DNA of 64,000 bases, taken from the NCBI GenBank assembly GCA_919902985.1, contig CAKKSC010000009.1:11871-75870 (forward strand), given 5' to 3'. Each line of letters opens with the position of its first letter. Positions within the stretch are counted from its first letter, which is position 1. This document shows, piece after piece, positions 35,064-60,520 of this stretch. The stretch comes from Desulfuromonadales bacterium (lineage in GTDB: Bacteria; Desulfobacterota; JAENJC01). The position numbers were made by a program, and so were the translations under genes. A model generated the notes under the pieces. The model saw only the letters and a program-made list of their open reading frames with translations. It ran no database searches and was not told where the DNA came from.

Positions 35064-35154
35064 CTGGTAAAAGCAGCTGCTGGTTATGTTTGTCTGAATT
35101 TCTTGACTGAGCAACGCTGATGTGATAAAAAGTATTCACAACTGAATAATACCG

Positions 35155-35312
35155 TATCCGGGTTCCTATTTTGGATTAAAAAGGGAAGTGGGGTGTAAGA
35201 CCCCCGCGGACCCGCCGCTGTAATCGGGGATGAAACCCACAAATGCCACTGTCTTTACGATGGGAAGGTGTGGGGAGTAGGATGAACCGAGAGCCAGAAG
35301 ACCTGCCCAATA
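35155..35312 (+). promoter_or_regulatory. Cobalamin riboswitch 1
   Basis: All conserved blocks are present: AAGGGAA, GGTGTAAGACCC, CCCGCCGCTGTAA, GCCACTG, TGGGAAGG and the B12 box GAGCCAGAAGACCTGCC. Confidence 0.85.
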
Positions 35313-35381
35313 TCTATATGGATACGCCTCACAACCTCTTCGATGGTAAAGAAGGTGAGGGTTAAGCCTGCATTATACTTA

Positions 35382-35420: not shown

Positions 35421-35548
35421 TGTTGTTAGATAATTTGTCCTGTGCATAAAAAGGAGTAATACTTGTGCATAATACCAAGTAAGCTTTCAGTAATGGCAAT
35501 AATTATCTGTTTGCAACTTGGTATAAATTCAAAGTAGTCTGAAAATAA

Positions 35549-35716
35549 GTATTCAGGTGCCTGCAGAAGCAGGTGAAAAGGGAATCCCGTGAGAAGCGGG
35601 AGCGGTCCGGCCACTGTAAACGGTGACGAACGCTGCATATGCCACTATTCTGACGAATGGAATGGGAAGGCGCAGCTATTAGGAAGACCCGTAAGTCAGG
35701 AGACCTGCCTGAATGC
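35549..35716 (+). promoter_or_regulatory. Cobalamin riboswitch 2
   Basis: P1 TATTCAGG..CCTGAATG; AAGGGAA, CCACTGTAAACGG, GCCACT, TGGGAAGGC, B12 box AGTCAGGAGACCTGCC. Preceded by an extended -10 TGGTATAAA (35519-27). Confidence 0.85.
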
Positions 35717-35779
35717 AAACAATTCAGCCTTCCAGGGAAAGGTGGTGAATGGGATGGTCTCTTTTATCAGGGGTCCGTG

Positions 35780-36733: not shown

Positions 36734-37825
36734 ATGAAAAATATACTATTTACGGCCTTTATCGGCCTTATGCTTTTAGCGGCACCTGCCCATGCCATGC
36801 ATCTCTCTGAGGGGATACTGCCTATGAAGTGGGCTGTTATTTGGTATCTTGTGGCCCTGCCGTTTGTGGCGTATGGTGTTTATAAGGTTAAGGCCATTTC
36901 AAAGGAAGACTTATCCATCAAGCCTATGCTCGGTATGATGGGGGCAGCTGTATTTATCATCTCATGCATGCCCGTCCCTGTCCCCACAGCCGGAACATGC
37001 TCTCATCCTTGCGGGACAGGGATGGCGGCAATACTTATAGGCCCGGTACTGAGCACCTTTGTGGCATCCATCGCCCTGTTGATACAGGCCCTCTTCCTTG
37101 CCCACGGCGGGATAACTACTTGGGGAGCTGACATTGTTTCTATGGGTGTTATAGGCTCTTTCTCTGCCTACCTGACATTTAAGGGGTTGCGGAAGGTTGG
37201 TCTTGGTCTCGTACCGGCAGCCTTTGCCGCCGGGGTAATTTCTGACTGGGCCACATATGCCACTACCTCTTTTGAACTTGCCTCTGCATTGCAGGGTAAT
37301 GAACCGTTCATGAAGCTCTTTTCAACCATACTTATTGCATTCATACCGACCCAACTCCCGCTTGGGATACTTGAGGGGGCTATGACAGCCGGGATGGTGG
37401 CCTTTGTGATGAAGAGAAGGCCGGAGATACTGGAGAACCTGGGAGTTATCAAAATGCAAAGTGCAAAGTGCAAAATGCAAAGCGTCGTAGGAACTTTACT
37501 ACTGATTGCTGTGGCCATAGTTCCTTTGGCTGCATCCGCTGAAGAAGGGAAATGGACAGGTGTGGATGAATCGGTTGTTGAGAAGGTGGCCAAGGAGCAT
37601 GGCAGGGAGGCATGGGAGCCCTTTATAAATACAGACCAGGGAGATCTCCTTCTCTTTGTATTTCTTGTAGCTGGCGTCATAGGCGGGTTTGTGATGGGGT
37701 ATTACTGGCGAGGGATTTTTGATAAAAAAATCCCTCGCAATCCCCCTTTAGAGGGGACTGTCCCAGATTTACGGACGAAGCGCAGCGAAGTCGTAGAATC
37801 GGGACTGTCCCCGGATCGAGGCTAA
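36734..37825 (+). CDS. cbiMN: Cobalt ECF transporter CbiM fused to a CbiN-like module
   Basis: Signal peptide ending AHA directly before MHLSEGILP (the metal-binding mature N-terminus of CbiM/NikM). After a simple-repeat linker comes a CbiN-like TM-loop-TM (..EGKWTGVDES..EPFINTDQGDLLLFVFLVAGVIGGFVMGYYW). The tail is encoded by a family-A repeat. Confidence 0.85.
   Translation: MKNILFTAFIGLMLLAAPAHAMHLSEGILPMKWAVIWYLVALPFVAYGVYKVKAISKEDLSIKPMLGMMGAAVFIISCMPVPVPTAGTCSHPCGTGMAAILIGPVLSTFVASIALLIQALFLAHGGITTWGADIVSMGVIGSFSAYLTFKGLRKVGLGLVPAAFAAGVISDWATYATTSFELASALQGNEPFMKLFSTILIAFIPTQLPLGILEGAMTAGMVAFVMKRRPEILENLGVIKMQSAKCKMQSVVGTLLLIAVAIVPLAASAEEGKWTGVDESVVEKVAKEHGREAWEPFINTDQGDLLLFVFLVAGVIGGFVMGYYWRGIFDKKIPRNPPLEGTVPDLRTKRSEVVESGLSPDRG
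37753..37812 (+). repeat. Family-A double-palindrome element
   Basis: GGGGACTGTCCCAGATTTACGGAC-gaagcgcagcgaa-GTCGTAGAATCGGGACTGTCCCC. It encodes the last ~24 aa of CbiMN. Confidence 0.9.
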
Positions 37826-37826
37826 T

Positions 37827-38441
37827 ATGTTTACCGGAACCTTTTCAGATGTATACGCTAAACGCGACAACTGGCTTACGAGGATGGATGCTAGAATTAA
37901 ACTGGCCTTTGCTGTAGCCCTCCTATTCCTGAATCTGTTCGGAGGCGCTGTTGTCTCTTTATTCATCTTTGCAGTCGCAATTTCGACCTTGCTTTATCTT
38001 CGTATTCCGACAAAAACCCTTTTAATCAGGCTTTTAGAGCCTTTAGGTGTTGCAGGGGTGGTAATCCTTGTGAAGCTCTATTTTATAGGTTGGTCCGGTC
38101 TTCCAGAAGGGTTGATGATAGCATCCAGGATACTTGGGGCAGTTTCCTTAATATTACTCTTAAGCATGACCACCCCAGTTGATGCCCTGTTAAAGGCCCT
38201 TTCATGGTTTTGGGTCCCCAGGACATGGACAGATGTTGCCCTCCTGACTTATCGCTACATATTTGTCCTCCTTGAGGATGCCTATGTAGTCTACTCTGCC
38301 CAACGGATAAGACTCGGGTATCTGGGGATAGGTCGCTCCTTCCAGTCCTTTGGAATCTTGGCAGGAGCCATAGTCATAAGAGCGTATGATCAGGCCATGG
38401 CAACCTCCCAGGCCATGAGGCTCAGGGGATACGTAGGATAA
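37827..38441 (+). CDS. cbiQ: ECF transporter T component CbiQ
   Basis: 204-aa membrane protein: ..LTRMDARIKLAFAV.. N-terminus and ..A.RIRLGY.. coupling-helix region. The ATG lies 1 nt after the cbiMN stop. Confidence 0.85.
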   Translation: MFTGTFSDVYAKRDNWLTRMDARIKLAFAVALLFLNLFGGAVVSLFIFAVAISTLLYLRIPTKTLLIRLLEPLGVAGVVILVKLYFIGWSGLPEGLMIASRILGAVSLILLLSMTTPVDALLKALSWFWVPRTWTDVALLTYRYIFVLLEDAYVVYSAQRIRLGYLGIGRSFQSFGILAGAIVIRAYDQAMATSQAMRLRGYVG

Positions 38442-38444
38442 GAT

Positions 38445-38514
38445 AACTCCCCCCAGCCCCCTCTTAAGTTAAGAGGGGATTTATGCCCTGCGGGTATGCC
38501 GAAGGCGGGGGCGT
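38445..38514. repeat. Family-B hairpin element
   Basis: AACTCCCCCCAGCCCCCTCTTAAGTTAAGAGGGG...GCCGAAGGCGGGGGCGTT, in the cbiQ/cbiO spacer. Confidence 0.8.
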
Positions 38515-38515
38515 T

Positions 38516-39382
38516 ATGAATAAAGGATTAACGATGAGCCTGATCGAAGCAAAGAATATGTCTTTCACCTACCCCGACGGGAGCAAGGCGCTGCAGGATG
38601 TAAACCTTAAGGTTGAAAAAGGGGAGTTTGTCGGCCTTCTGGCCTCCAATGGTTCAGGGAAGACTACCCTTCTTAGATGCCTGAACAATCTTATCAAGCC
38701 CCAGACCGGTGAAGTTTCAATTGACGGGAAAGGTATTGCCGGTCTTCCTCAAAAAATACTTTTCCAGCGGATCGGGATGGTCTTTCAGAACCCAAATGAC
38801 CAGCTCTTTGCCTCAACCGTTGCAGAAGATGTTGCCTTTGGCCCGTCTAACATGGGCCTGTCAAAGGATGAAGTTAAGAGCAGTGTTGATGAGGCATTGA
38901 AGGCTGTGGGTATGGATGACCTTGGGAAGAAATCCATCCACAACCTCTCATTCGGACAGCAGAAGAGGGTATGCATCGCAGGGGCCCTGGCCATGCATCC
39001 TGAAGTCCTGTTGCTGGATGAGCCCACAGCTGGTCTTGATCCTATGGGCGAACACAAGATAATGGAGCTTTTGCAGAAGTTAAACAACGAAAGGGGCCTT
39101 ACCATAGTCATGGCGACCCATATGGTCGATATGGTACCCCTATTCATCGACAGGATATATATACTTAGCCGCGGAAAGGTCCTGAGGGAAGGAACGCCTG
39201 AGAAGGTCTTTTCAGACCCTGAGATGATAAAGGATGCAAAGCTGAGGCTCCCGATGATAGCAGAACTTATCGAACTTATGAGGCAGGAAGACGGGATATA
39301 TTTTGATAGAACACCATTGACCATTGGAGAGGCGAGACGGGAGCTGGTGAAGATGATAACGTTGAGGGAGTTAAAGAAATAA
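38516..39382 (+). CDS. cbiO: ECF transporter ATPase CbiO
   Basis: Walker A ASNGSGKTT, Q-loop, signature LSFGQQKRV, Walker B LLLDEP. Start chosen at ATG 38516, downstream of the repeat. Confidence 0.92.
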   Translation: MNKGLTMSLIEAKNMSFTYPDGSKALQDVNLKVEKGEFVGLLASNGSGKTTLLRCLNNLIKPQTGEVSIDGKGIAGLPQKILFQRIGMVFQNPNDQLFASTVAEDVAFGPSNMGLSKDEVKSSVDEALKAVGMDDLGKKSIHNLSFGQQKRVCIAGALAMHPEVLLLDEPTAGLDPMGEHKIMELLQKLNNERGLTIVMATHMVDMVPLFIDRIYILSRGKVLREGTPEKVFSDPEMIKDAKLRLPMIAELIELMRQEDGIYFDRTPLTIGEARRELVKMITLRELKK

Positions 39383-39384
39383 TA

Positions 39385-39412
39385 GTAGGGGCGTATTGCC
39401 ATACGCCCCTAC
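39385..39412. repeat. REP single hairpin (GTAGGGGCGTATTGC.ATACGCCCCTAC)
   Basis: Perfect 13-bp stem. Identical-type copies lie at 47459-47486 (inside cobQ) and 60445-60472. Confidence 0.85.
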
Positions 39413-39425
39413 ATAATAAAATTCT

Positions 39426-40670
39426 ATGTCACCAATAAGACCATTACGTCACGGCTATACCACCGGTTCCTGCGCGACTGCTGCCGCTAAGGCTGCCACA
39501 CTGGCCTTTTTACGGCAGGAAAGCGTGAAAGAGGTAGAGATAACCCTTCCAAAAGGTGAGATGGTTTTATTTAAGGTGCATTCATGCACTTTTAACAAGG
39601 AATCTTCCAGATGTTCTGTTATAAAGGATGGGGGAGATGATCCTGATGTGACGAATGGTGAAGAAATAGTGGCCGAGGTTTTTATCTCGGCGAATCAGGA
39701 GATAGCTCAAACTCCCCCCAACCCCCTCTTTACTAAAGAGGGGGTGCCAAAGGCGGGGGAGTTGTCTGTCGTCGAATCAGGACTCTCTCCGGTCGGGAAA
39801 AAAGCCTTCGAGTTCAGTGTTCATAATTCACAGGTCATTGTTTACGGTGGCAGAGGAGTTGGAGTTATTACAAAACCTGGGCTGGCCCTGCCTGTTGGTG
39901 AACCTGCCATTAACCCCGTTCCAAGAAAGATGATACAACAGGCGGTTGAAGAGGCGATTAGCGGTATGCAATACGCCCCTACAAATGTCATGGTTATCAT
40001 CTCCGTCCCTGATGGCGAGATGATTGCCAAGGGCACACTCAACAAACGCCTTGGGATAATGGGCGGGATCTCTATACTTGGGACAACCGGTATTGTAAAG
40101 CCGATATCCACCAAGGCCTGGGCTGACACCATAAGCGTTGCCCTGGATGTTGCCAAGGCTGCCGGACTTGAAGAGGTTGTATTGACCACGGGTCGGACCA
40201 GCGAGAAAGTCGCGATGGAGAGGTTAAAACTCCCGCCGGAGGCTTATATCCAGATGGGTGACCATGTTGGCTATTCCCTCAGAGAGTGCGTAAAAAAACG
40301 GTTCAAGATGGTCACCATTGCCGGACAATTTGGGAAGTTTACCAAGATAGCATCAGGAGAGTTTGAGACAAACGTCAGGGACTCAACTCTGGAGCTTAAG
40401 ACGCTGTCCGATATTATCCTTCAATCATTATCATCCCATCAGATTGATCCTACAAGGGCTGAAAAAGTGGCTCAGCTGGTAAAGAGCGCAAACACGGCCC
40501 GTCAGGCCTATTTCATCATAAGAGATGAAGGGATGGAGGAGATCATAGAGGCCGTGTGCATGAAGGTTTGTGAAAATTCAGTGAACTTTATCAAGGCAGA
40601 TACCCTTGAGTCCATAAATGTTGACTGCATATTGGTCGGATACGAAGGGGAGATAGTCTTTGCGATCTAA
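39426..40670 (+). CDS. cbiD: Cobalt-precorrin-5B (C1)-methyltransferase CbiD
   Basis: LRHGYTTGSCATAAAKAA.. N-terminus, ..DGGDDPDVTNG.., ..INPVP..MI.., ..GGISILGTTGIV.P.S... Carries repeat-derived inserts at about 39709-39790. Confidence 0.9.
   Translation: MSPIRPLRHGYTTGSCATAAAKAATLAFLRQESVKEVEITLPKGEMVLFKVHSCTFNKESSRCSVIKDGGDDPDVTNGEEIVAEVFISANQEIAQTPPNPLFTKEGVPKAGELSVVESGLSPVGKKAFEFSVHNSQVIVYGGRGVGVITKPGLALPVGEPAINPVPRKMIQQAVEEAISGMQYAPTNVMVIISVPDGEMIAKGTLNKRLGIMGGISILGTTGIVKPISTKAWADTISVALDVAKAAGLEEVVLTTGRTSEKVAMERLKLPPEAYIQMGDHVGYSLRECVKKRFKMVTIAGQFGKFTKIASGEFETNVRDSTLELKTLSDIILQSLSSHQIDPTRAEKVAQLVKSANTARQAYFIIRDEGMEEIIEAVCMKVCENSVNFIKADTLESINVDCILVGYEGEIVFAI
39709..39762. repeat. Family-B hairpin element inside cbiD
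   Basis: AACTCCCCCCAACCCCCTCTTTACTAAAGAGGGGGTGCCAAAGGCGGGGGAGTT, translated as TPPNPLFTKEGVPKAGEL. Confidence 0.9.
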
Positions 40671-42021
40671 TATCCACATAATAGGGGTCGGTGTCGAGGG
40701 CCGTGAAAGTCTTTCTCAAAAGGCCCTTAAAGTTCTTGAATCTGCCGGTCTTCTGATAGGCGGAGAGCGACATCTTGATGAGTTCCCTGAATTCAAGGGT
40801 GAACGGTTTGTCCTGAAGGCGAATTTGAAGGAGATGCTTGAGGTTATAATAAGTTCCGGGGACAGTCCCGATTCTACAACTCCCCCCAACCCCCTCTTTA
40901 GTAAAGAGGGGGTGCCAATAGGCGGGAGAGTTGTCGTCCTTGCCTCCGGCGATCCAGGCCTCTTCGGCATTGCCGATTACCTGATAAGGAACCTTGGGCA
41001 AGATGCAGTTGAGATAACACCAAATGTCAGCGCCATGCAGTGGGCCTTTGCAAAGGCAAAAGTAAGCTGGAACGATGCACGGATTGTCAGCAGCCACGGA
41101 CGAGGGATGGACAAGATTTTAGAAGCTGCAGGAGATGCAGAAAAGATTGGAATATTCACAAGCAACGGGGATGAGCCTTCTGAGATTGCAGAACTACTCA
41201 TTGATAATGGATTGAACAGTTTTACTGCATACATATGTGAAGACCTGGGTATGGAGACTGAAAAAGTCCTGGAGATGCAGCTTTCGGACGTATCAGGTAA
41301 GTCATTTGCTGCGTTGAATGTGATGGTACTTGTAAGGCAGGGGTCAGGGGGCAGGGGTCAGGGAGCAGAAGAAAATAAAAAAATCATCCCTCATCCCTCA
41401 TCCCTCATCCCTATTCTCGGTCTTCCCGACTCCGAATTCGCCCATTCCAAAGGCCTCATAACCAAGGAGGAGGTTCGGGCCGTCAGCCTTGCAAAGCTGA
41501 GAATGAGGAATGACAGCATTGTCTGGGATATCGGAGCCGGTTCCGGCTCTGTGGGTATCGAGGCGGCAAGGCTTTGCAGGGATGGAAAGGTCTTTGCCAT
41601 AGAAAAGGAACCGGAGAGGGTAGCTCATATCTACGAGAATATAAAGAAGTTTGGCATTGCAAACATGATCGTTCTGGAAGGAAAAGCGCCGGAAGGTCTT
41701 GACGGTTTATCAGACCCTGACGCTGTCTTTATCGGGGGAAGCGGAGGAAATCTCTCTGATATCCTTGATGTTGTCAAAGGGAGGCTACGGCCTTCAGGTC
41801 GGATAGTCATAAACGCCATAACTCTTGAGACCCTTCATGAGGCCACGACTGGTCTGAAAGATAGAGGGTTTGATGTAGATGTTGTAAGCCTGAACATTGC
41901 AAGAAGCAAGGACCTGATAGGGATGAAGATGTTCGAGGCGGAGAATCCGGTATTTATAATAATAGGCGAAAGGAGTAAGGGGACTGTCCCAGATTTACGG
42001 ACGAGCGCAGCGAAGTCGTAG
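40660..42021 (+). CDS. cbiET: Cobalt-precorrin-7 (C5)-methyltransferase / cobalt-precorrin-6B (C15)-methyltransferase (decarboxylating), CbiE-CbiT fusion
   Basis: CbiE half: IHIIGVGVEG.., VVVLASGDPGLFG. CbiT half: ..ITKEEVRAVSLAKL......WDIGAGSGSV.IEAA... Repeat inserts lie at 40858-40932 and 41339-41411. The stop codon lies inside a family-A element. Confidence 0.9.
   Translation: MRSNIHIIGVGVEGRESLSQKALKVLESAGLLIGGERHLDEFPEFKGERFVLKANLKEMLEVIISSGDSPDSTTPPNPLFSKEGVPIGGRVVVLASGDPGLFGIADYLIRNLGQDAVEITPNVSAMQWAFAKAKVSWNDARIVSSHGRGMDKILEAAGDAEKIGIFTSNGDEPSEIAELLIDNGLNSFTAYICEDLGMETEKVLEMQLSDVSGKSFAALNVMVLVRQGSGGRGQGAEENKKIIPHPSSLIPILGLPDSEFAHSKGLITKEEVRAVSLAKLRMRNDSIVWDIGAGSGSVGIEAARLCRDGKVFAIEKEPERVAHIYENIKKFGIANMIVLEGKAPEGLDGLSDPDAVFIGGSGGNLSDILDVVKGRLRPSGRIVINAITLETLHEATTGLKDRGFDVDVVSLNIARSKDLIGMKMFEAENPVFIIIGERSKGTVPDLRTSAAKS
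40858..40932. repeat. Composite insert: inverted family-A half plus a family-B hairpin inside cbiET
   Basis: GGGGACAGTCCCGATTCTACAAC then AACTCCCCCCAACCCCCTCTTTAGTAAAGAGGGGGTGCCAATAGGCGGGAGAGTT, translated as GDSPDSTTPPNPLFSKEGVPIGGRV. Confidence 0.9.
41384..41411. repeat. Heptanucleotide tandem repeat (TCATCCC)x4
   Basis: Four perfect units in the CbiE/CbiT linker, preceded by the G-rich GGGGTCAGGGGGCAGGGGTCAGGG (41339-41363). Confidence 0.9.
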
Positions 42022-42037
42022 AATCGGGGCTGTCCCC
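41979..42037 (+). repeat. Family-A double-palindrome element
   Basis: GGGGACTGTCCCAGATTTACGGAC-gagcgcagcgaa-GTCGTAGAATCGGGGCTGTCCCC. The TAG of the right arm is the cbiET stop codon. Confidence 0.9.
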
Positions 42038-42045
42038 AATATAGC

Positions 42046-42760
42046 GTGAAAAAATTAGGCAAATTATACGGTATTGGTGTTGGTCCAGGAGACCCGGAAC
42101 TTTTGACCCTCAAGGCTGTGAGGGTGCTTGGAGAAGCCGAAGTTGTTGCCATTCCAAAATCCAAGGAGGAGTCGTATAGCATCGCCCTTTCAATCGTGAA
42201 AGGCGCCGTGGACCTTTCAAAAAAAGAAACCCTTGAACTCATGTTCCCCATGACCAAGGACAAAGAGGTCCTCAGGAAGGCAAGGGAAGAGGCTGCGGCG
42301 GCTATATGCGAAAGGCTTAAGGGAGGGAAGGATGTTGCATGCATAACCCTGGGAGATCCAATGTTCTACAGCACCTTCAGCTATTTGATCCCTCTGCTCA
42401 GGGCAAGGGTTCCAGGGATAGAAATAGAGATAGTTCCGGGTATCTCATCCGTCATGGCTTCGGCTGCAATGACCGTTACACCGCTCACGGAAGCGGATGA
42501 AAGGCTGGCGGTGATACCGGCAACATATGAGCAGGAAAAATTGAGAGACATACTTAGGGAGTTTGATACAGTTGTGCTTATGAAGGTGAACAGGGTATTC
42601 GATAAGGTACTTGGACTGTTGGAAGAGCTAGGCTTGAAGGAAAAGGCTGTGTTCATCGAGAGATGCGGCGGCGAAAACCAGAGGGTTGTTCGAGATTTAG
42701 ACAGTTTGAAGGGCGAGAAGCTGGATTATCTCTCAATGGTGATAGTCAAGAGAGGTAATC

Positions 42761-42771
<11 letters not shown>
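42046..42771 (+). CDS. cbiL: Cobalt-precorrin-2 (C20)-methyltransferase CbiL
   Basis: KLYGIGVGPGDPELLTLKA.. and ..LGDPMFYSTF.. tetrapyrrole methylase motifs. GTG start. Confidence 0.88.
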
Positions 42772-43546
<775 letters not shown>

Positions 43547-43625
43547 ATATATACGGTGAGATTATAGGCGTTATTATAATTTTAGATTTTCTCTGCGTCT
43601 CTGCGCCTCCGCGGTGGATAATTAT

Positions 43626-44747
43626 ATGAAGACCGCCATAATCACCCTTACTAAGGGCAGCGTGGAGCTTGGTCTCGGACTTCATGAGAGGTTGATGGAT
43701 TCCGAGCTTTTTGTCCCTGAGAAGCACAGGGATATGGCCGACGGAAAGGGTATCACCTTTACCGAGATAACGGATGTTGCGGAGAAGGCCTTTTCCGAAT
43801 ATGACGGACTGGTCTTCATCATGGCGACAGGAATTGTTGTAAGGGTCATTGCTCCATTTATAAAAGGGAAGGACATGGACCCTGCTGTCGTTGTCATGGA
43901 TGAAGCCGGAAAGTTTGCTATATCTCTTTTGTCAGGGCATTTGGGCGGGGCCAATGAACTGGCCGGAGAGGTAGCCGGACTTACAGGAGCTACACCTGTC
44001 ATTACGACTGCGACGGATGTTTGCAATAAGCCGTGTGCAGAGGGTATCGCCAGGGAACTGGATTGCGAGATAGAGAACGTTGCAAGGATAAAGAAGGTCA
44101 ACAGCGCGTTTCTGCATGACGAGAAGGTGGCTATAAACCTCCCAGCAGGAGAGAGGGAGGCCATTGCCGGTTGTGGTAACTTTATTTTTTTTGGCACTTT
44201 GCAGGGGCTTCTTGCTTCAGAATGCACTGCCCGCATCGCTGTAACCAACAGGCTGACGCCTGATATTCTTGGGAACTGTCTTGTCTTCAGGCCGATGAAT
44301 CTTGTTGTCGGTATCGGATGCAACAGGAACACATCCGCAGAGGAGATAGAAGATGTGGCATTTAAGGTTTTGAAGGATGCCGGGCTTTCTCAAATGAGTA
44401 TACGGAATCTGGCTACTATAGATGTTAAAAGGGATGAGGACGGGATCCTAAAATTTGCTGAGAAGTATGGCCTTACGATAGATTTTTTTAATAAAGAAGA
44501 GCTGGAAGAAACAAAGCTGGTGACTCCCCCTTCACTGCATGTCATAGATGCAGTGGGAGTCGGCGGCGTGTGCGAGCCTGCTGCCATGCTGAGTGCAAAG
44601 GTTTCAACGCTATTGGTAAACAAAGTAAAGTCTGGGAATGTAACGGTGGCAGTGGCAGAAATGGAGGGGACTGTCCCAGATTTACGGACGGAGCAAAGCG
44701 GAGTCGTAGAATCGGGACTGTCCCCGAAAAAGGGAGGCTATTTTTGA
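43626..44747 (+). CDS. cbiG: Cobalt-precorrin-5A hydrolase CbiG
   Basis: N-terminal ..AIITLTKGS.., central ..ISLLSGHLGGAN.LA.. and C-terminal ..VVGIGCNRNTS.EEI... The tail is encoded by a family-A element. Confidence 0.88.
   Translation: MKTAIITLTKGSVELGLGLHERLMDSELFVPEKHRDMADGKGITFTEITDVAEKAFSEYDGLVFIMATGIVVRVIAPFIKGKDMDPAVVVMDEAGKFAISLLSGHLGGANELAGEVAGLTGATPVITTATDVCNKPCAEGIARELDCEIENVARIKKVNSAFLHDEKVAINLPAGEREAIAGCGNFIFFGTLQGLLASECTARIAVTNRLTPDILGNCLVFRPMNLVVGIGCNRNTSAEEIEDVAFKVLKDAGLSQMSIRNLATIDVKRDEDGILKFAEKYGLTIDFFNKEELEETKLVTPPSLHVIDAVGVGGVCEPAAMLSAKVSTLLVNKVKSGNVTVAVAEMEGTVPDLRTEQSGVVESGLSPKKGGYF
44666..44725 (+). repeat. Family-A double-palindrome element
   Basis: GGGGACTGTCCCAGATTTACGGAC-ggagcaaagcgga-GTCGTAGAATCGGGACTGTCCCC, translated as the CbiG C-terminus GTVPDLRTEQSGVVESGLSP. 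Confidence 0.9.
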
Positions 44748-45550
44748 AAGGTAAAATATTTGTTGTCGGCATCGGCCCCGGAAGTGCGGAGCATTTGACA
44801 CAGAGGGCCAGGACCGCACTGTATGAGGCCGACGTAATTGTTGGATATAAAACTTATGTAAACCTGATAAAGTGCATTGTGGGCGGCAAGGAGATTGTAT
44901 CTACCGGCATGACTGAGGAAGTGGAGCGCTGCAAGGCCGCCATTGAATTGGCAGAGAATGGTAAGAAGGTCGCCGTCATATCCAGTGGTGATGCGGGGAT
45001 ATATGGGATGGCGGGACTGATATATGAATTAGTGGCCAATAAGGGGACTGTCCCAGATTTACGGACATCGCCCCGCTCCGTCGTAGAATCGGGACTGTCC
45101 CCGACTTTAACCGTTCACGATATTGAGATCATCCCAGGCGTCTCAGCCCTTAATGCAGCCGCGGCAGTCCTTGGCGCGCCGTTAATGCATGACTTCGCTG
45201 CAATTTCTCTATCTGATCTCCTTACGCCCTGGGAAGTCATTCAGAAAAGGATTGAGTCTGCTGCAATGGCCGATTTTGTTATCTGCATATATAATCCAAA
45301 GTCATCCGGGAGGGTCGAACAGATAAGGATTGCACGGGACTTAATCTCAAGACACAGGAAGCCTGATACCCCTGTGGGGATAGTTAAAAATGCCATGAGG
45401 GATGGACAGAAGGTTTTGCTTACTACCCTTTCTGATATGCTTAACCATGATATAGACATGCTTACAACGATTATAATCGGCAATTCCACGACGTACATGG
45501 TCGACAGTGTGATGGTGACGCCGAGGGGATATAAGATAGGCGAAGAGTGA
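44744..45550 (+). CDS. cbiH: Cobalt-precorrin-3B (C17)-methyltransferase CbiH
   Basis: KIFVVGIGPGS.EHLT.RA.., ..VISSGDAGIYGMAGL.., ..PGVSA.NAAAA.LGAPL.HDF... The TTG start overlaps the cbiG stop. Contains a 60-nt in-frame family-A insert. Confidence 0.88.
   Translation: MKGKIFVVGIGPGSAEHLTQRARTALYEADVIVGYKTYVNLIKCIVGGKEIVSTGMTEEVERCKAAIELAENGKKVAVISSGDAGIYGMAGLIYELVANKGTVPDLRTSPRSVVESGLSPTLTVHDIEIIPGVSALNAAAAVLGAPLMHDFAAISLSDLLTPWEVIQKRIESAAMADFVICIYNPKSSGRVEQIRIARDLISRHRKPDTPVGIVKNAMRDGQKVLLTTLSDMLNHDIDMLTTIIIGNSTTYMVDSVMVTPRGYKIGEE
45043..45102 (+). repeat. Family-A double-palindrome element inside cbiH
   Basis: GGGGACTGTCCCAGATTTACGGAC-atcgccccgctcc-GTCGTAGAATCGGGACTGTCCCC; exactly 60 nt, translated as GTVPDLRTSPRSVVESGLSP. 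Confidence 0.9.
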
Positions 45551-45576
45551 GAATCAACGGTTAGGAGTTGTTATTG

Positions 45577-46734
45577 ATGAAGGTCGCAGTTATAGGTGGA
45601 GGCCCGGCTGGCGCTATGGCGGCGATGACGCTGGCGAAGGCAGGGGTTGAGACATATTTGATAGAGAAAGACCTCAATGGCGACAAGCCTTGCGGAGGAG
45701 GTATTCCGTGTGGCGCCCTAAGGGCGTTTGACATCCCTGATTACCTCTTTGAGAGAAAGGTTTCTAAGGTAGGGATCATTGCACCATCAGGGGATGAGGT
45801 TGTCGCAGACCTTGGAGACGGATATGTCGGGATGGTTGATAGGGCCAGGTTCGATCCATATCTCAGGGAGAGGGCCGTTCAGGCCGGGGCAAGACTTATA
45901 GAAAGGGTTTTTACCGGTTTCTCCAAGAAAGAATCAACTCCCCCTCGCCCCCTCTTTATCAAAGAGGAGGAAATTAAGGTCATTTTCAAGCAGGGAGAGA
46001 AAGAGGACTCCATCGGAGTGGATGCCGTTATTGCGGCTGATGGGGTCAATTCAACCGTTGCAAAACAGGTTGGGGCCGAAAGGCCGCAGGTATACCTCAC
46101 GGTACAAGAGAAGGTACAGTTGACTGGAGAGGCAAAAAAATTATATGAGGACCGCTGCGAATTCTGGTATGGGGCAGATATTTCTCCGAATTTCTACGGT
46201 TGGGTCTTTCCCAAGAAAGAGTTCGCCACCATTGGAACAGGGACATATCTTGATGACGGTAAGAATCTGAAGGGGTATTTGGGAAGGTTCAAGGAAAGAC
46301 TTGGGGCAAGGATAAGCGATGCAAAGGTGCTGAAGAGGCAGTCTTATGTCCTGCCTATGGGGCCGATAAAGAAAAAGGTCTATGGGAATATCCTTCTGGT
46401 GGGAGATGCCGCAGGGACGGTCATGCCAGTGTCCGGAGAGGGCATTTATTACAGCATCATGAGCGGGAATTTGGCCGCGGAGGCTGTGATAAAAGGGGAT
46501 TTTGCTTCTTATGAAAGGGAGTGGAAAAGGGTTTACGGTTCACAGTTCAGGCTGATGTCACTTCTTCGCCAATGGCTCTATAGAGATGACAAGTGGCGGG
46601 AGAGGCTCGTCAGGATACATGAAGACAAGGATGTCCAAGAAAGAACTCTTGCCCTGTGGCTGGACAAAGAAAGGAAATATCCAATATACAGCATATACTG
46701 GAAGATATTAAGGAGTCTGCTGAGGCATGGCTAA
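45577..46734 (+). CDS. FAD-dependent oxidoreductase, geranylgeranyl reductase family
   Basis: MKVAVIGGGPAGAMAA..LAKAG.E..LIEK......KPCGGGIP (the GGR-family KPCGGG signature), ..VIAADGVNS.VA.. and ..LVGDAAG.V.P.SGEGIYY... AGGAG RBS. Its stop overlaps the cobQ start. Confidence 0.8.
   Translation: MKVAVIGGGPAGAMAAMTLAKAGVETYLIEKDLNGDKPCGGGIPCGALRAFDIPDYLFERKVSKVGIIAPSGDEVVADLGDGYVGMVDRARFDPYLRERAVQAGARLIERVFTGFSKKESTPPRPLFIKEEEIKVIFKQGEKEDSIGVDAVIAADGVNSTVAKQVGAERPQVYLTVQEKVQLTGEAKKLYEDRCEFWYGADISPNFYGWVFPKKEFATIGTGTYLDDGKNLKGYLGRFKERLGARISDAKVLKRQSYVLPMGPIKKKVYGNILLVGDAAGTVMPVSGEGIYYSIMSGNLAAEAVIKGDFASYEREWKRVYGSQFRLMSLLRQWLYRDDKWRERLVRIHEDKDVQERTLALWLDKERKYPIYSIYWKILRSLLRHG
45936..45970. repeat. 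Family-B hairpin (partial) inside the GGR-like gene
   Basis: AACTCCCCCTCGCCCCCTCTTTATCAAAGAGGAGG, translated as STPPRPLFIKEEE. Confidence 0.75.
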
Positions 46735-48292
46735 ATCGATAATGGTTCAGGGTACCGGCTCTCATGTGGGGAAGAGCATTATAACTGCCGGGCTCTGCAG
46801 GATATTTAAGAATATGGGATATAAAGTCGCCCCGTTCAAGGCCCAGAATATGGCGCTTAATTCAGCCGTGGCTAAGGAAGGCGGGGAGATAGGCCGCGCC
46901 CAGGCCATACAGGCGGAGGCCTGCGGGGTTGAGCCGTCGATCCATATGAATCCGGTTCTTCTTAAGCCAAACAGTGATATGGGTTCCCAGGTGATAATCC
47001 ACGGAAAGGTTATCGGGAATATGAAGGCAAGGGAGTACTATGCCTACAAAAAGAAGGCTTGGGAGGCTGTCTGCGAAAGCTACAGTAAACTTTCAGGAGA
47101 ATTTGATTTGATTGTAATTGAAGGGGCAGGTTCACCTGCGGAGGTGAACCTTAAGGAGAACGACATCGTAAATATGAAGGTGGCGGAGATGGCCGGGGCA
47201 AAGGTGCTTCTGGTCTCTGACATAGACAGAGGCGGTGTTTTTGCCGCGCTGATTGGTACTATGGAGTTACTGACGCAATCCGAAAGGAAGATGGTCTGCG
47301 GTTTTATCATTAACAAGTTTAGAGGTGACAAAACCCTGCTTGAGCCGGGGCTTGATTTTATCGAGAAAAGGACAGGGGTGCCGGTTCTTGGTGTTGTTCC
47401 GTATCTTAGGGATATGGTGATTGGGGAAGAGGACAGTGTTGGACTTGATAATAGGAAGGTAGGGGCGTATTGCGATACGCCCCTACAAAACCGGCCCATA
47501 AAAATCGGCATCATCCAGCTCCCGCATATCTCAAACTACACCGATTTTGATTCACTTCAAAGAGAACCGGATGTCGAGCTAAGGTATATACAACGGCCTG
47601 AAGAGGTTGATGGACTTGATCTGGTGATAATCCCCGGCAGCAAGAACACCATTGACGACCTTCTTTTCCTCAAAAAGACAGGCCTGGCAGAGGCTATCGA
47701 TAAGCATTACAGAGATGGCAGGCACCTTGTGGGCATCTGCGGAGGGTACCAGATCCTTGGCCTTAAGGTCTCCGACCCTCATGGAGTTGAGACAGATGGA
47801 GTTTCTGAGGAAGGCCTGGGGCTTCTCCCGATAGAGACGGTTTTATTGAAAGATAAAGTCACCGCAAATATTGAGGCGGTCGGCAGTCAGCAGTCAGCGG
47901 CCAGCTTGAAAGGATACGAGATTCATATGGGCGAATCCATGATAGTTGGGGATGCGAAACCTTTGTTTGTTATACGAAAGAGAAACAGCGGCGCTGTTGA
48001 GATGCCCGACGGTGCTATAACAAAAGACGGCAGATGCTGGGGGACATACATCCACGGGGTATTTGACAATGATGGGTTCAGAAGGGATTTCCTTAATGGC
48101 ATAAGAAAAGACAAGGGGTTGGATGCTGTAAAGGGATTGATTAATAAGGATGACGGTTTTGATCAACTGGCCGCTGTTTTAATAGAAAATCTCGATGTAG
48201 AACGTATCTTAAAACTTACAGAAGACTGGAGAGTACGCCTTGGATCAGAAGCAGGAACAAGTCAAACAATCGAATCTGGATATAGCGCTTAA
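46727..48292 (+). CDS. cobQ: Cobyric acid synthase CobQ/CbiP
   Basis: IMVQGTGSHVGKS.. P-loop, ..APFKAQNMALNS.., C-terminal GATase ..ICGGYQ.LG... and ..GYEIHMG... Contains REP (47459-86) and simple-repeat (47876-905) inserts. Confidence 0.93.
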   Translation: MAKSIMVQGTGSHVGKSIITAGLCRIFKNMGYKVAPFKAQNMALNSAVAKEGGEIGRAQAIQAEACGVEPSIHMNPVLLKPNSDMGSQVIIHGKVIGNMKAREYYAYKKKAWEAVCESYSKLSGEFDLIVIEGAGSPAEVNLKENDIVNMKVAEMAGAKVLLVSDIDRGGVFAALIGTMELLTQSERKMVCGFIINKFRGDKTLLEPGLDFIEKRTGVPVLGVVPYLRDMVIGEEDSVGLDNRKVGAYCDTPLQNRPIKIGIIQLPHISNYTDFDSLQREPDVELRYIQRPEEVDGLDLVIIPGSKNTIDDLLFLKKTGLAEAIDKHYRDGRHLVGICGGYQILGLKVSDPHGVETDGVSEEGLGLLPIETVLLKDKVTANIEAVGSQQSAASLKGYEIHMGESMIVGDAKPLFVIRKRNSGAVEMPDGAITKDGRCWGTYIHGVFDNDGFRRDFLNGIRKDKGLDAVKGLINKDDGFDQLAAVLIENLDVERILKLTEDWRVRLGSEAGTSQTIESGYSA

Positions 48293-48878
48293 ACTGGCGA
48301 AAGAGCAGTTTGCAAAGAGAGACCCGAAAGATATGGCTGAGAGAGCCGGGGGAGAACACGAGTCCGCCAGCTGTTCCAACTCCCTGATCTCTCTGCGACT
48401 GCTTGGGCAGGAGTATACCCTGGTCCATCCCGATGGCGGGATTGAATCTCCAGACCATCACCAGGTTGGCCTCGTGGCCCACGTACTCCTGCTTCATTAC
48501 CTCATTTACGCCTCCGACAAACCTCTAAGCAATGAACTGTCTTCTTACAAGGATATCCCCGGAGGAGATAAATATTTCAGTGTCTTCAAGAAGCGGGTAG
48601 AGATGCCTCTGCTCAATGCCTATGGCGATAACCCCGAAGGGTTCGAGAAGGCTTGCGAAGGATCAGGTGGCTTAGAGGTCACAATGGGCGATCTTGCATA
48701 TCAATTTCAGGCCTTTCCGAATATCCCGATTACCTACATCTACTGGAAGGGGGATGAAGAGTTTCCTGCGTCAGTCCAGGTCCTTTTTGATTCGTCTATT
48801 AAGGACTACCTTCCTCTGGAAGATATAGTCTTCCTCTCAGAGATGCTTTCCTGGAAGCTGGCAAGATATCAGCAATGA
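48240..48878 (+). CDS. DUF3786 domain-containing protein
   Basis: 212-aa ORF: ..NLDIALKLAKEQFAKRDPKDMAERAG.., ..SYKDIPGGDKYFSVFKKR.., ..FPASVQVLFDSS....LPLEDIVFL... The only in-frame start is TTG 48240, which overlaps cobQ by 53 nt. Confidence 0.6.
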   Translation: MDQKQEQVKQSNLDIALKLAKEQFAKRDPKDMAERAGGEHESASCSNSLISLRLLGQEYTLVHPDGGIESPDHHQVGLVAHVLLLHYLIYASDKPLSNELSSYKDIPGGDKYFSVFKKRVEMPLLNAYGDNPEGFEKACEGSGGLEVTMGDLAYQFQAFPNIPITYIYWKGDEEFPASVQVLFDSSIKDYLPLEDIVFLSEMLSWKLARYQQ

Positions 48879-48937
48879 GTGATGAGTGATGAGCAATGAG
48901 CAATGAGTTTTCAGTCTTCAGCCCTCAGCCTTCAGCC
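48873..48937. repeat. Simple-sequence tract (ATGAGTG/ATGAGCA then TTCAGCC-type units)
   Basis: CAATGAGTGATGAGTGATGAGCAATGAGCAATGAG..TTCAGTCTTCAGCCCTCAGCCTTCAGCC, spanning the DUF3786 stop and the cbiB start. Confidence 0.85.
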
Positions 48938-49891
48938 AGTCTTGTCCTCTGTGCATTCTTCCTCGATCTGCTGCTGGGTGATCCCAGATGGTTCCCGCAT
49001 CCGGTTGTTTTGATTGGGAGAGGTATATCTTTAGGAGAGGGAACATTAAGAAGGCTTGCAAAGTTCAAGACTGCTGAACTTCTTGCCGGGGCGATGTTGG
49101 CGGTCGTAATTCCTGTTTCTGCCTTCGTTGCAGTTGATTTTATAATCAAATTAACATCCCATCTCCATCAATGGACAGGATGGTTTGCAGCCGTCTTTTT
49201 TGGATATACGACTATTGCAGCAAAAAGCCTATACCAAGAACCGTTGAAGGTTGCAGCAATGCTTGACGCCAAGAATCTGGATGGTGCAAGAAATGAACTC
49301 TCCTGTCTCGTTGGCCGGGACACCAGCAGCCTCGACGAAAAAGGGATAACGAGGGCTTTGCTAGAGACAGTAGCGGAGAATACATCTGACGGGGTAATTG
49401 CTCCTCTCTTCTATCTGGCTATAGGCGGCCCTCCGCTGGCGATGGCATATAAGGCCATAAACACCCTCGATTCCATGGTCGGGTATAAAAACGAGAAGTA
49501 TCTTTATTTCGGCAGGGCCTCTGCAAGGCTTGATGATATTGCTAACTATATCCCGGCAAGGATAACGGCAATCCTGTTAGCTGTTGCCGCGTTCATATTG
49601 CGCAAGGACTGGAGAAGGGCATGGAGGATAACATTAAGGGACAGTGGGAACCATCCGAGCCCCAACTCCGGATACCCGGAAGCAGCAGTTGCCGGAGCAC
49701 TCGGAAGGCGGCTCGGAGGACTTTCGTATTACGGCGGCATGCCGAGCAATAAGCCTTTTATAGGTGATGATGCTGGAGAGTTTCAGGTTAGAGATGTGAG
49801 AGAGGCAGGAAGGCTCATGCTTATGACATCGGCATTGATGGTACTGATATCAATTGTTGTTTTATCAATCTGGGGACAGAGATGCGTATAA
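48896..49891 (+). CDS. cbiB: Adenosylcobinamide-phosphate synthase CbiB
   Basis: ..FFLDLLLGDPRWFPHPVVLIGR.. and ..EN.SDGV.APLFY...GG...A..YKA.NTLDSM.GY... The start is uncertain because the N-terminus lies in a simple-repeat tract. Confidence 0.9.
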   Translation: MSNEFSVFSPQPSASLVLCAFFLDLLLGDPRWFPHPVVLIGRGISLGEGTLRRLAKFKTAELLAGAMLAVVIPVSAFVAVDFIIKLTSHLHQWTGWFAAVFFGYTTIAAKSLYQEPLKVAAMLDAKNLDGARNELSCLVGRDTSSLDEKGITRALLETVAENTSDGVIAPLFYLAIGGPPLAMAYKAINTLDSMVGYKNEKYLYFGRASARLDDIANYIPARITAILLAVAAFILRKDWRRAWRITLRDSGNHPSPNSGYPEAAVAGALGRRLGGLSYYGGMPSNKPFIGDDAGEFQVRDVREAGRLMLMTSALMVLISIVVLSIWGQRCV

Positions 49892-50955
49892 ACCACATCC
49901 ACGGCGGGAATATAAGAGAGGTTGCGAGAAGGTACGGTCTGAGACCGGAAGACATTATAGACTTCAGCGCCAGCATAAATCCTCTGGGAATGTCTGAAAG
50001 GGCCAGGAAGGCTATTATTGAAGGGGTTGACTCGATTCTCCACTACCCTGAGCAGTTTGCAGAAGCCCTCACCTCAGAAGCGGCCAGGTTTTACGGCGTT
50101 CCGAATTACTGTTTGATTGCAGGTAACGGCTCTACTGAGCTTGTTTATCTTGTTCCCAGGGCATTCAAGCCCAAAAAGGCCCTTATTGTCAACCCTACCT
50201 TCAGCGAATATAAAAACGCCCTTAAGATCGCCGGATGCGGCATAGATTATTTTCTCATGCTTGAGGAAGACGGGTTCAGGCTGAGAGTTGATCCTCTGAT
50301 GCGTGTTTTAAAAGGAAGATACGATATCCTGTATATCTGCAATCCAGGAAACCCAACGGGGGCATTAATCCCAAAAAGCGATATCCTTGAAATAGTTGAT
50401 ACGGCCTTGAATCATGATACGTTATGCATAGTGGATGAGGCTTTTATCGATTTTGCCGAGATGGAGTCAGTCAAAAGAGAAGCGGTGGAGAGGTCTAATC
50501 TTATAGTTCTCAGGTCTCTGACCAAGTTCTTCGGAATCCCTGGCCTTAGGATAGGCTTTGCGGTAGGAAATAAGGAGAGGATCGGGGAGATGACAGTTTA
50601 CAAGGAACCTTGGAGCGTCAATGCTCTTGGGTCTATTGCGGGCATTGAAGGGTTAGGTGATACTGAGTACATCGAAGAGAGCAGAAGATACGTGGAAAAG
50701 GAGCGGGATCATCTTTTTTCTGCATTGAAGGGGATTCAAGGGCTTACGCCCTTCCCTTCCTCTGCGAACTACATCCTTCTTAAGATTAATAAGGATGGGG
50801 TGGATGCTGATACTCTTGCGGCAACCCTTGCAAAGGAAGGGATACTTATCAGATCATGTTCCTCCTTTGATGGGCTTGGAAATAGATTTTTCAGGATTGC
50901 GGTCAGAAACAGAGAAGAGAATGAAAGGCTGGTTAAACTCCTGACAGCGTCATAA
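49882..50955 (+). CDS. cobD: L-threonine-O-3-phosphate decarboxylase
   Basis: HGGNIREVARRYGL..EDIIDFSASINPLG.. and the class I/II aminotransferase fold (..NPGNPTG.., ..SLTKFFGIPGLRIG..). Confidence 0.88.
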   Translation: MRINHIHGGNIREVARRYGLRPEDIIDFSASINPLGMSERARKAIIEGVDSILHYPEQFAEALTSEAARFYGVPNYCLIAGNGSTELVYLVPRAFKPKKALIVNPTFSEYKNALKIAGCGIDYFLMLEEDGFRLRVDPLMRVLKGRYDILYICNPGNPTGALIPKSDILEIVDTALNHDTLCIVDEAFIDFAEMESVKREAVERSNLIVLRSLTKFFGIPGLRIGFAVGNKERIGEMTVYKEPWSVNALGSIAGIEGLGDTEYIEESRRYVEKERDHLFSALKGIQGLTPFPSSANYILLKINKDGVDADTLAATLAKEGILIRSCSSFDGLGNRFFRIAVRNREENERLVKLLTAS

Positions 50956-51003
50956 ATTTGTGTTGACAAAAGAGAGCCTTTATACAAAAATAGCGTCTAA
51001 ATG

Positions 51004-51190
51004 TAGTCAGGTGGTTCCAAATTACTGGAACCTAAATAGGGAATACCGTGGCCTGCTAAAAGCAGGGAATCGGAAGCTGCCCCCGCAACTGTAAACGGAG
51101 ACGAAACCCACACCAGCCACTATCCTTAAACAGGATGGGAAGGCGTGGGGATTAGGACGACCCGTAAGCCAGGAGACCTGCCTGATTCTG
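51004..51190 (+). promoter_or_regulatory. Cobalt/cobalamin riboswitch 3 (internal to the locus)
   Basis: TAGGGAA, CCCCGCAACTGTAAACGG, GCCACT, TGGGAAGGC, B12 box AGCCAGGAGACCTGCC. P1 is GTCAGG..CCTGAT. Confidence 0.85.
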
Positions 51191-51256
51191 AGTTCTCGCC
51201 GCCTTTCGTGGGGAAGGGTTTGGGAGATATCCCTTCATTGGATATTTGCCTTTTAA

Positions 51257-51290
51257 CCCCCAACCTCTCGATAGGTTGGGGGTTTTTTAT
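51257..51290 (+). terminator. Intrinsic terminator (expression platform of riboswitch 3)
   Basis: Stem CCCCCAACCT (51257-66) / AGGTTGGGGG (51273-82) followed by T6. Confidence 0.85.
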
Positions 51291-51324
51291 TTTAAGGGGA
51301 CTGTCCCAGATATTCGGGGAAAAG

Positions 51325-51855
51325 ATGAAAAAGGGATTGATACATATTTACACAGGCGAAGGGAAAGGAAAGACCACTGCGTCCATAGGTCTTGCCATAA
51401 GGGCTGCCGGTCAGGGGCTGAATGTCCTTCTTGTCCAGTTCTTCAAGTCGGACAAGGATTCTTCCGGGGAGCTTAATATCATCAGAGAGCGGATCCCTGA
51501 GATAGAGATGATAAGGATGAATGAAAGGCATCCCCTTTTCAAAAAGGAGGAGAGCCCCGGAAAGATAAAGGACTCAGTGGAGGAGACCTTCAGGGAGGCA
51601 GTGGATAAAGCTCTTCACGGTGATTATGATTTACTGATAATGGATGAGATACACAGCGCGGTGGCCGGGAACTGGCTCTCGGTGGATGAGGTCATAGGTT
51701 TCCTGAAGCATAAACCAGAGAAGCTTGAAGTGGTCATGACAGGACGCAAGGCCCATGAACGGTTGATTGAAATGGCCGATTATGTCACAGAGATGAATAT
51801 GCAGAGACACCCCTATGAAAAAGGGGTAACGGCGAGGAAGGGGATTGAATACTAA
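51325..51855 (+). CDS. cobO: Cob(I)yrinic acid a,c-diamide adenosyltransferase
   Basis: GLIHIYTGEGKGKTTASIGLAIRAAGQGL.VLLVQFFK.. Start taken at ATG 51325, downstream of the riboswitch terminator. Confidence 0.9.
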   Translation: MKKGLIHIYTGEGKGKTTASIGLAIRAAGQGLNVLLVQFFKSDKDSSGELNIIRERIPEIEMIRMNERHPLFKKEESPGKIKDSVEETFREAVDKALHGDYDLLIMDEIHSAVAGNWLSVDEVIGFLKHKPEKLEVVMTGRKAHERLIEMADYVTEMNMQRHPYEKGVTARKGIEY

Positions 51856-52615: not shown

Positions 52616-52635
52616 ATATATTTCTGGAGGTCTAA

Positions 52636-53706: not shown

Positions 53707-53714
53707 AAAAATAT

Positions 53715-53810: not shown

Positions 53811-53815
53811 AAATA

Positions 53816-54556: not shown

Positions 54557-54557
54557 T

Positions 54558-56154: not shown

Positions 56155-56157
56155 TGT

Positions 56158-56210: not shown

Positions 56211-56220
56211 AGGAGGCACA

Positions 56221-57582: not shown

Positions 57583-57656
57583 AATGCAAATTGAAAATTT
57601 CAAAGTGCAAAACTCAAAATGGTCACTTTTCATTTTGCAATGGAGTGGCTACTAAT

Positions 57657-59057: not shown

Positions 59058-59088
59058 CTTATAAATTAATATTGAATAAGGAGGTTGA

Positions 59089-60396: not shown

Positions 60397-60444
60397 TACA
60401 TAAATGGACACAGATGAACGCTGATAAATTCTGATAGCAAGGAT

Positions 60445-60472
60445 TTAGGGGCGTATTGCAATACGTCCCTAC
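60445..60472. repeat. REP single hairpin (degenerate)
   Basis: TTAGGGGCGTATTGCAATACGTCCCTAC. Confidence 0.7.
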
Positions 60473-60520
60473 CTTACAAATCATGCAAATCTGCGTCTAA
60501 CAAATAAAGGAGGTTATTTT

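Follow-up and report, generated by a model that had tools for sequence, protein, structure and literature searches.

A geranylgeranyl reductase-family flavoprotein gene between cbiH and cobQ in the riboswitch-controlled cobamide cluster of an uncultured groundwater deltaproteobacterial lineage

The 64,000-nt stretch of contig CAKKSC010000009.1 analyzed here (Desulfuromonadales bacterium; the whole stretch is referred to as the window) originates from Hainich groundwater metagenomes and carries a large cobamide biosynthesis cluster, in which a gene encoding a flavoprotein of the geranylgeranyl reductase (GGR) family, an enzyme dependent on flavin adenine dinucleotide (FAD), lies between cbiH and cobQ. 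This gene is real, is in use, and is part of a B12-controlled transcription unit. We tentatively read its product as a diverged GGR prenyl-type C=C reductase that is co-regulated with, or accessory to, cobamide synthesis, and assign to this reading a probability of roughly 0.4. The initial annotation of the locus had proposed instead that the flavoprotein replaces the missing cobalt-precorrin-6A reductase (CbiJ), and the available evidence leans against such a substitution.

The gene and its two immediate neighbors are arranged as follows:

44744..45550, plus strand: cbiH, cobalt-factor III / precorrin-3B C17-methyltransferase
45577..46734, plus strand: GGR-family (ChlP/BchP-like) FAD-dependent C=C reductase gene, ATG start, 385 amino acids
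46727..48292, plus strand: cobQ/cbiP, cobyric acid synthase, overlapping the flavoprotein gene by 8 nt

The start of cbiH is likely at 44744, since a longer open reading frame (ORF) beginning with GTG at 44570 runs into cbiG. Between the end of cbiH (45550) and the ATG of the flavoprotein gene is a 26-nt spacer with an AGGAG ribosome-binding site, and the coordinates thus confirm both the length of the ORF and its distance from cbiH as initially annotated. The stop codon had been described as overlapping the cobQ start codon. The two genes do overlap by 8 nt (ATGGCTAA), but the TAA stop (46732-46734) is located 3 nt past the cobQ ATG (46727-46729) and not on it.

Pairwise comparisons with six orthologs gave ratios of nonsynonymous to synonymous substitution rates (dN/dS) of 0.08-0.21 for the flavoprotein gene, indicating purifying selection, and comparable values were obtained for its neighbors cbiH (0.06-0.13) and cobQ (0.05-0.14). 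Of the words sampled from the cbiH-cobQ stretch, 90% were found in a groundwater metatranscriptome run, and contigs from the metatranscriptome span the whole operon including the flavoprotein gene, although DNA carry-over in the library is possible. One of these contigs, 2078 nt in length, contains the 3' end of the flavoprotein gene, the junction, cobQ, and the following DUF3786 gene. The gene is assigned to a B12-controlled unit because cobalamin riboswitches are located upstream of it and no strong plus-strand terminator was found between approximately 36 kb and 50.9 kb:

35143..35324, plus strand: upstream member of a tandem pair of cobalamin riboswitches, with a terminator-like hairpin after it at 35381-35414
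35538..35726, plus strand: cobalamin riboswitch, second of the tandem pair, heading the unit from 35749 to the end of cobD (50955)

Each riboswitch of the pair has its own terminator-like hairpin, and the unit that follows consists of an outer-membrane channel gene, cbiM through cbiH, the flavoprotein gene, and cobQ to cobD.

The family assignment made in the initial annotation is borne out. All three of the motifs that it had named are present in the flavoprotein (GGGPAG at residues 7-12, KPCGGG at 37-42, and GDAAG at 276-280), and the protein scores above the cut-offs of TIGR02032 GG-red-SF (218.4 bits, cut-off 158.8) and PF22578 GGR_cat (30.3 bits, cut-off 27). These scores confirm a GGR-family FAD enzyme. 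Within this family, the flavoprotein passes the BchP-ChlP model TIGR02023 marginally (346.5 bits, cut-off 343.3) and fails the ChlP equivalog model TIGR02028 (278 bits, cut-off 505), and the name given by automatic annotation, “geranylgeranyl diphosphate reductase”, probably specifies too much. Other key residues are Cys39 within KPCGGG, R89-x-x-F-D93, and P204-N-F-Y207-G-W209-V-F211-P212. In an alignment of 36 homologous sequences, GGGPAG, R89..F92-D93, and G276-D-A-A-G280 are invariant, and Cys39 in PCGG, the PxxYxWxFP motif followed by GTG, SGEGIYY, and the C-terminal helices of the ChlP/BchP type are also retained.

Structural comparison points to the same family. The AlphaFold2 (AF2) model of the flavoprotein has the three-domain GGR fold, with a mean predicted local distance difference test score (pLDDT) of 88.6, and its best Foldseek matches are 3OZ2 and 3ATQ (template modeling (TM) scores 0.80-0.82, E = 4e-28); 3OZ2 is also the best match in a profile search against PDB sequences (E = 2e-40). 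Residues 119-128 form the sole low-confidence segment of the model, and a variable, dispensable loop at approximately residues 117-130 is missing from some close homologs. In characterized GGRs, the aromatic residues of the PxxYxWxFP motif shape a cavity that places the geranyl group against the flavin (PMC10821996), the active-site cysteine of the Sulfolobus enzyme is Cys47 (PMC10821996, PMC12004948), and both the cavity motif and the cysteine are also retained in the sterol C-24 reductase Bsr (PMC12004948). As these features are all conserved in the flavoprotein, its active-site architecture still looks prenyl-directed.

The closest homologs of the flavoprotein (67-100% identity) form a clade of approximately 20 clusters, and those that are named all belong to metagenome-assembled genomes (MAGs) labeled “Deltaproteobacteria bacterium”. 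A scan of one genome from each of 185,579 species, made with two peptide patterns that very divergent homologs could escape, found the clade in only three uncultured MAGs, and in no cultured Geobacter, Desulfovibrio, or other named organism. MAGs carrying the clade are GCA_030646755.1, the assemblies with contigs JACQYJ010000014 and JAENJC010000172, and the Hainich bins H52 and H41. The best 80 metagenome matches included seven more contigs of the clade, the remainder being ChlP at 35-38% identity. The gene's place in a corrin operon, inferred initially from the window, is supported by its coordinates and riboswitch context, and also by its relatives. In each of the 11 distinct clade loci for which a downstream flank is available, cobQ follows directly, and the linkage to cbi genes is therefore recurrent. 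cbiH is found upstream in every clade locus with an upstream flank except L014, where the cobamide cluster is split. There, the flavoprotein gene is preceded by PIN and DUF1186 genes and heads the cobQ-DUF3786-cbiB-cobD-cobO... half, apart from the ring-modification genes, and no riboswitch was found directly upstream of it.

Outside this clade, the next relatives (40-48% identity) occur in unrelated contexts. In P0022 (45% identity) the homolog is located between polA and ndk, and in Nitrospirota relatives (approximately 40% identity) between a creatininase-family gene and an M48 peptidase gene, neither having any link to B12. In a neighbor-joining tree, the cbi-linked clade is monophyletic with 100% bootstrap support, and the group of ChlP/BchP from phototrophs (86% bootstrap) leaves it outside; judged from the sequences, it is a diverged branch next to the phototroph clade. 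The linkage between GGR and cbi genes is thus recurrent yet phylogenetically shallow, which is consistent with a single insertion event. A wider or deeper linkage was searched for in genomes, metagenomes, and plasmids, and only this one clade was recovered, the plasmid matches being BchP on photosynthesis plasmids.

Several observations were made on the condition of the gene and the variation within the lineage. A pseudogene or decaying hitch-hiker was considered and is ruled out by the dN/dS values together with the full retention of motifs. On the metagenome contig L042, the matches to the flavoprotein (3629-4737) are split over two frames (3629-4366 and 4360-4737), reflecting either a frameshift or an assembly error. 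Along the cluster (window positions 42761-50955 compared with L014, L039, and L001), the synonymous substitution rate (dS) for a given pair of loci differs several-fold from gene to gene; against L014, for example, the flavoprotein gene has a dS of 0.63 and cobD one of 0.22. Such unevenness suggests recombination within the lineage.

The proposed replacement of CbiJ had been based on elimination, CbiJ being considered the one missing step of the pathway. For the window, this part stands. No match to CbiJ (PF02571) was found in approximately 58 window ORFs scanned against Pfam, which included every ORF of CbiJ size, and neither the window nor any related locus gave a match in tblastn searches with the protein annotated as CbiJ on the Trichlorobacter lovleyi plasmid, while the other ring steps, from CbiL to CbiC, are all encoded in the window. 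The flavoprotein itself matches neither PF02571 nor TIGR00715. However, SirA/CobA (uroporphyrinogen-III methyltransferase) and SirC (precorrin-2 dehydrogenase) are also encoded outside the 64-kb window; the cluster is therefore not self-contained, and the absence of cbiJ from the window is no proof of its absence from the genome. We considered separately whether a CbiJ might be concealed within the window or form part of a fusion with another cbi protein, and rejected this, Pfam and NCBIfam scans of the same ORFs and tblastn all being negative.

A gap at CbiJ is not peculiar to this lineage. Among the deltaproteobacteria studied by Rodionov et al. (2004; PMC545781), cbiJ was found only in Desulfuromonas, and Geobacter, Desulfovibrio, and Desulfotalea generally lack it (PMC545781, PMC3543383, PMC7726332). 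In G. sulfurreducens, which makes 5-hydroxybenzimidazolyl cobamide, CbiJ is listed as the only missing step (Dulay et al.; PMC7726332). Two related clusters retrieved via CbiH homologs also bear on this question. One of them (L031) is otherwise nearly complete and contains neither cbiJ nor the flavoprotein gene. In the other (L117, positions 40-2964, from a Deltaproteobacteria MAG), cbiG, cbiH, and cobQ are directly adjacent with an 80-nt spacer, again without cbiJ and without the flavoprotein gene, and this arrangement probably represents the state before the insertion. Because cbiH and cobQ are adjacent in L117 with neither gene between them, the cbiJ gap is probably older than the insertion. 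The simplest history is probably one in which cbiH stood beside cobQ in an ancestral operon that was already without cbiJ, with insertion of the flavoprotein gene following later. If the ancestral operon was without cbiJ, another solution to the CbiJ step must exist in these bacteria, and with an older gap shared across the lineage the elimination argument loses most of its force. An in-situ swap, for which a relative with the order cbiH-cbiJ-cobQ would be expected, was also looked for and was not found, as the nearest clusters (L031, L032, L033, and L117) all lack cbiJ. Separately, L031 contains at 7936-8937 a CbiF-like tetrapyrrole methylase fused to a Rieske [2Fe-2S] domain, a further unexplained redox module in a cbiJ-less cluster.

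In the history that we tentatively favor, one uncultured deltaproteobacterial lineage from groundwater would have acquired a gene for a GGR-family enzyme by insertion between cbiH and cobQ, in a Geobacter-like cobamide cluster that probably lacked cbiJ already, and the gene would since have been retained and transcribed with the operon under the cobalamin riboswitch. The substrate is predicted to be a slender hydrophobic chain of the prenyl type, one double bond of which would receive a hydride from reduced FAD. By analogy with archaeal GGR and ChlP, Y207, W209, and F211 may line the cavity that accommodates this chain, with Cys39 next to the flavin. The enzyme would not be the cobalt-precorrin-6A reductase, and its link to B12 would consist in co-regulation or an accessory role. 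What we infer is the class of substrate, when the insertion took place, and that the enzyme has no role in ring reduction. Several findings weigh against this interpretation. A stable position in the middle of the operon, kept in all 11 contigs despite rearrangements, is unusual for a functionally unrelated gene, the junction with cobQ is tightly spaced or an 8-nt overlap in three loci, and no isoprenoid, quinone, or prenyltransferase gene was found in the 64-kb window. The cbi-linked clade has 31 positions that are conserved in it alone, and several of them stand where ChlP/BchP of phototrophs have invariant or near-invariant residues (R88D, D205N, H216F, E255Q, R264I, and K295M). These clade-specific substitutions probably reflect a shifted specificity, the direction of which they do not indicate. 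Further, a GGR homolog, Bsr, has already been shown to displace a canonical reductase, that of sterol C-24 (PMC12004948).

Some of the same observations speak for a non-orthologous displacement of CbiJ, in which the flavoprotein would hydrogenate C18=C19 of cobalt-precorrin-6A and so supply the sole ring-modification step that lacks a gene in the cluster. CbiJ is absent from every clade locus as well as from the window while the other ring steps are present, hydride addition to C=C bonds is the chemistry of this enzyme class, the substitutions at ChlP-invariant sites suggest a new specificity, and the conserved operon position, purifying selection, riboswitch context, and RNA-derived contigs all fit a role in the pathway. 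Bsr, which was found via gene clustering, provides a precedent (PMC12004948). We nevertheless consider this displacement rather unlikely. The absence of cbiJ holds for the window and the clade loci, SirA and SirC are missing from the window as well, and Geobacter, which makes cobamides without cbiJ, was not found to carry the clade, pointing to another solution there (PMC7726332). The partial phylogenetic profile is in line with this, as cbiJ-less Geobacter and Desulfovibrio from the literature and the clusters L031 and L117 are all without the clade. Neither the motif of the narrow hydrophobic tunnel nor the GGR fold shows disruption, and no gain of basic residues suited to a polycarboxylate macrocycle is evident, while four basic residues conserved in ChlP have been lost in the clade; loss rather than gain would be unexpected for an enzyme adapting to a heptacarboxylate macrocycle. 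In the split cluster of L014, the gene goes with the late genes (cobQ-DUF3786-cbiB-cobD), and the clade does not extend beyond a single narrow lineage (at least 67% identity) whose 40-48% relatives are not linked to B12. Being confined to one small uncultured lineage, the clade is not the general deltaproteobacterial answer to the cbiJ gap. On account of the shallow linkage, the general cbiJ gap, L031 and L117, and the intact prenyl motif and fold, the replacement function initially put forward is neither demonstrated nor favored, and the alternative mentioned along with it, a hitch-hiking or co-regulated lipid-saturation gene, is at least as likely.

The position of the gene exactly between cbiH and cobQ would also suit another kind of redox helper, either a CobR-like enzyme reducing Co(II) to Co(I) in cobyrinic acid a,c-diamide before adenosylation, or a source of electrons for the ring contraction by CbiH. 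The gene stays with cobQ, the substrate of which is the adenosylated diamide, when the cluster is split, it belongs to a riboswitch-controlled operon, and no dedicated corrin cobalt reductase is recognizable in the window. We regard a helper of this kind as improbable, since the substrate-tunnel motif, needless for such a role, is conserved, and the narrow distribution argues against a general need. We also know of no GGR-family member that acts as a metal-center reducer or free flavin reductase, and the CbiH step is, as we read the pathway, redox-neutral overall. As for a canonical ChlP/BchP making phytyl groups for (bacterio)chlorophyll, as the automatic annotation implies, the narrow pass of TIGR02023 and the 37-39% full-length identity to cyanobacterial ChlP are outweighed by the failure of the TIGR02028 equivalog, the placement of the clade outside the phototroph group, the replacement of residues invariant in ChlP/BchP, and a habitat in dark groundwater, together with the finding that no bch/chl photosynthesis genes are present in the window or the clade loci, so that such a function is very improbable.

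Among known systems, ChlP/BchP (TIGR02023) is one of the closest to the flavoprotein. The similarity to cyanobacterial ChlP is collinear over the full length and includes every FAD and catalytic motif as well as C-terminal helices of the ChlP type, whereas an insertion of approximately 11 residues in ChlP is absent from the flavoprotein, which in addition is encoded in the B12 operon of a probable non-phototroph. The archaeal GGRs (Thermoplasma Ta0516, 3OZ2; Sulfolobus GGR, 3ATQ/4OPC) share with it the three-domain fold, PxxYxWxFP, and the active-site cysteine (PMC10821996), but are only 19-23% identical; the flavoprotein lineage is bacterial, its C-terminal domain differs, and it has no lipid-biosynthesis context. 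Bsr, the sterol C-24 reductase of Myxococcota, is likewise a GGR homolog in a cluster without the canonical reductase and retains YxWxFP and the cysteine (PMC12004948). However, its substrate is a double bond of an isoprenoid side chain and its role was shown biochemically, whereas the substrate bond proposed for the flavoprotein would belong to a macrocycle; Bsr also belongs to the MenJ-like branch, and the flavoprotein to the ChlP-like branch. CbiJ/CobK (PF02571; PDB 4X7G) resembles the flavoprotein just in the proposed chemistry, a two-electron C=C reduction, and in operon neighborhood. There is no sequence similarity between them, and CobK is an NADPH enzyme with two Rossmann-like domains (PMC4663756), in contrast to the FAD-dependent flavoprotein with its model of the p-hydroxybenzoate-hydroxylase-type/GGR fold.

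We found no report in the literature of a GGR-family gene in a B12 cluster, nor of any CbiJ analog. If the flavoprotein did substitute for CbiJ, it would be the first analog of CbiJ/CobK and the first GGR-family enzyme to act on a tetrapyrrole macrocycle rather than a prenyl chain, and it would offer a concrete, clonable candidate. Read conservatively, a riboswitch-held gene resembling prenyl reductases would tie B12 status to what is presumably the saturation of lipids or quinones, a connection not reported before. Genome-based predictions of B12 producers depend on how such cbiJ gaps are handled.

The remainder of the cluster is organized as follows:

35749-36585: outer-membrane channel gene (PF13557), between the tandem riboswitches and cbiM
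36734..44747, plus strand: cbiM (with a C-terminal extension)-cbiQ-cbiO-cbiD-cbiET-cbiL-cbiF-cbiG, cobalt uptake and ring modification, upstream of cbiH
48240..48878, plus strand: DUF3786 gene, located between cobQ and cbiB throughout the clade
48896..50955, plus strand: cbiB and cobD (threonine-phosphate decarboxylase), the last genes of the first riboswitch-controlled unit
50992..51199, plus strand: third cobalamin riboswitch, ahead of cobO-cobU-cobT-cobS-cobC (51145-55172)
57591..61543, plus strand: cbiA, BzaF-like 5-hydroxybenzimidazole synthase gene, and CbiX-CbiC fusion

The overall gene order, which we take to be similar to that in Geobacter, is cbiM-Q-O-D-ET-L-F-G-H and the flavoprotein gene; cobQ-DUF3786-cbiB-cobD; cobO-U-T-S-C; the Fic-like, ACT, and DUF711 genes; and cbiA, the BzaF-like gene, and CbiX-CbiC. 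The BzaF-like gene and the control by cobalamin riboswitches are features in common with Geobacter clusters. This ThiC-family gene (59089-60396) passes the NCBIfam ThiC model, yet its product has 71% identity to the protein annotated as BzaF on the T. lovleyi plasmid and, going by this similarity, probably makes 5-hydroxybenzimidazole as in Geobacter.

DUF3786 was also considered as a cryptic CbiJ or other reductase. The confident AF2 model of this protein (pLDDT 91.8) does not resemble a Rossmann fold, no PDB structure matches it significantly, and a homolog with 34% identity (L036, 10001-10681) is located directly upstream of the gene for RACo, the corrinoid reductive activator, in an acetyl-CoA synthase/carbon monoxide dehydrogenase (ACS/CODH) cluster. 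These findings speak against a reductase role, and suggest a corrinoid-handling or corrinoid-associated family instead.

Some further features of the region were observed. Genes encoding an ACT-domain protein and a DUF711/UPF0210 protein (NF003700, 744 bits) are located between cobC and cbiA (55873-57582), and an ACT gene follows cobC in L014 too (13265-13501). A perfect or near-perfect palindrome of 28 nt (GTAGGGGCGTAT..ATACGCCCCTAC), for which no occurrence is expected by chance, is present three times in the window (39385-39412, 47459-47486, and 60445-60472); two of the copies are intergenic, and one lies in frame in the interdomain linker of cobQ, where it is read as VGAYCDTPLQ. A heme cluster consisting of hemE, hemH, and a gene for a HemY(-like) oxidase is located 20 kb upstream (14041-17614, minus strand), and Fic and PIN genes (24588-26260, plus strand) and a Fic-like/HATPase_c_4 gene (55232-55876, plus strand) flank or interrupt the cob region.

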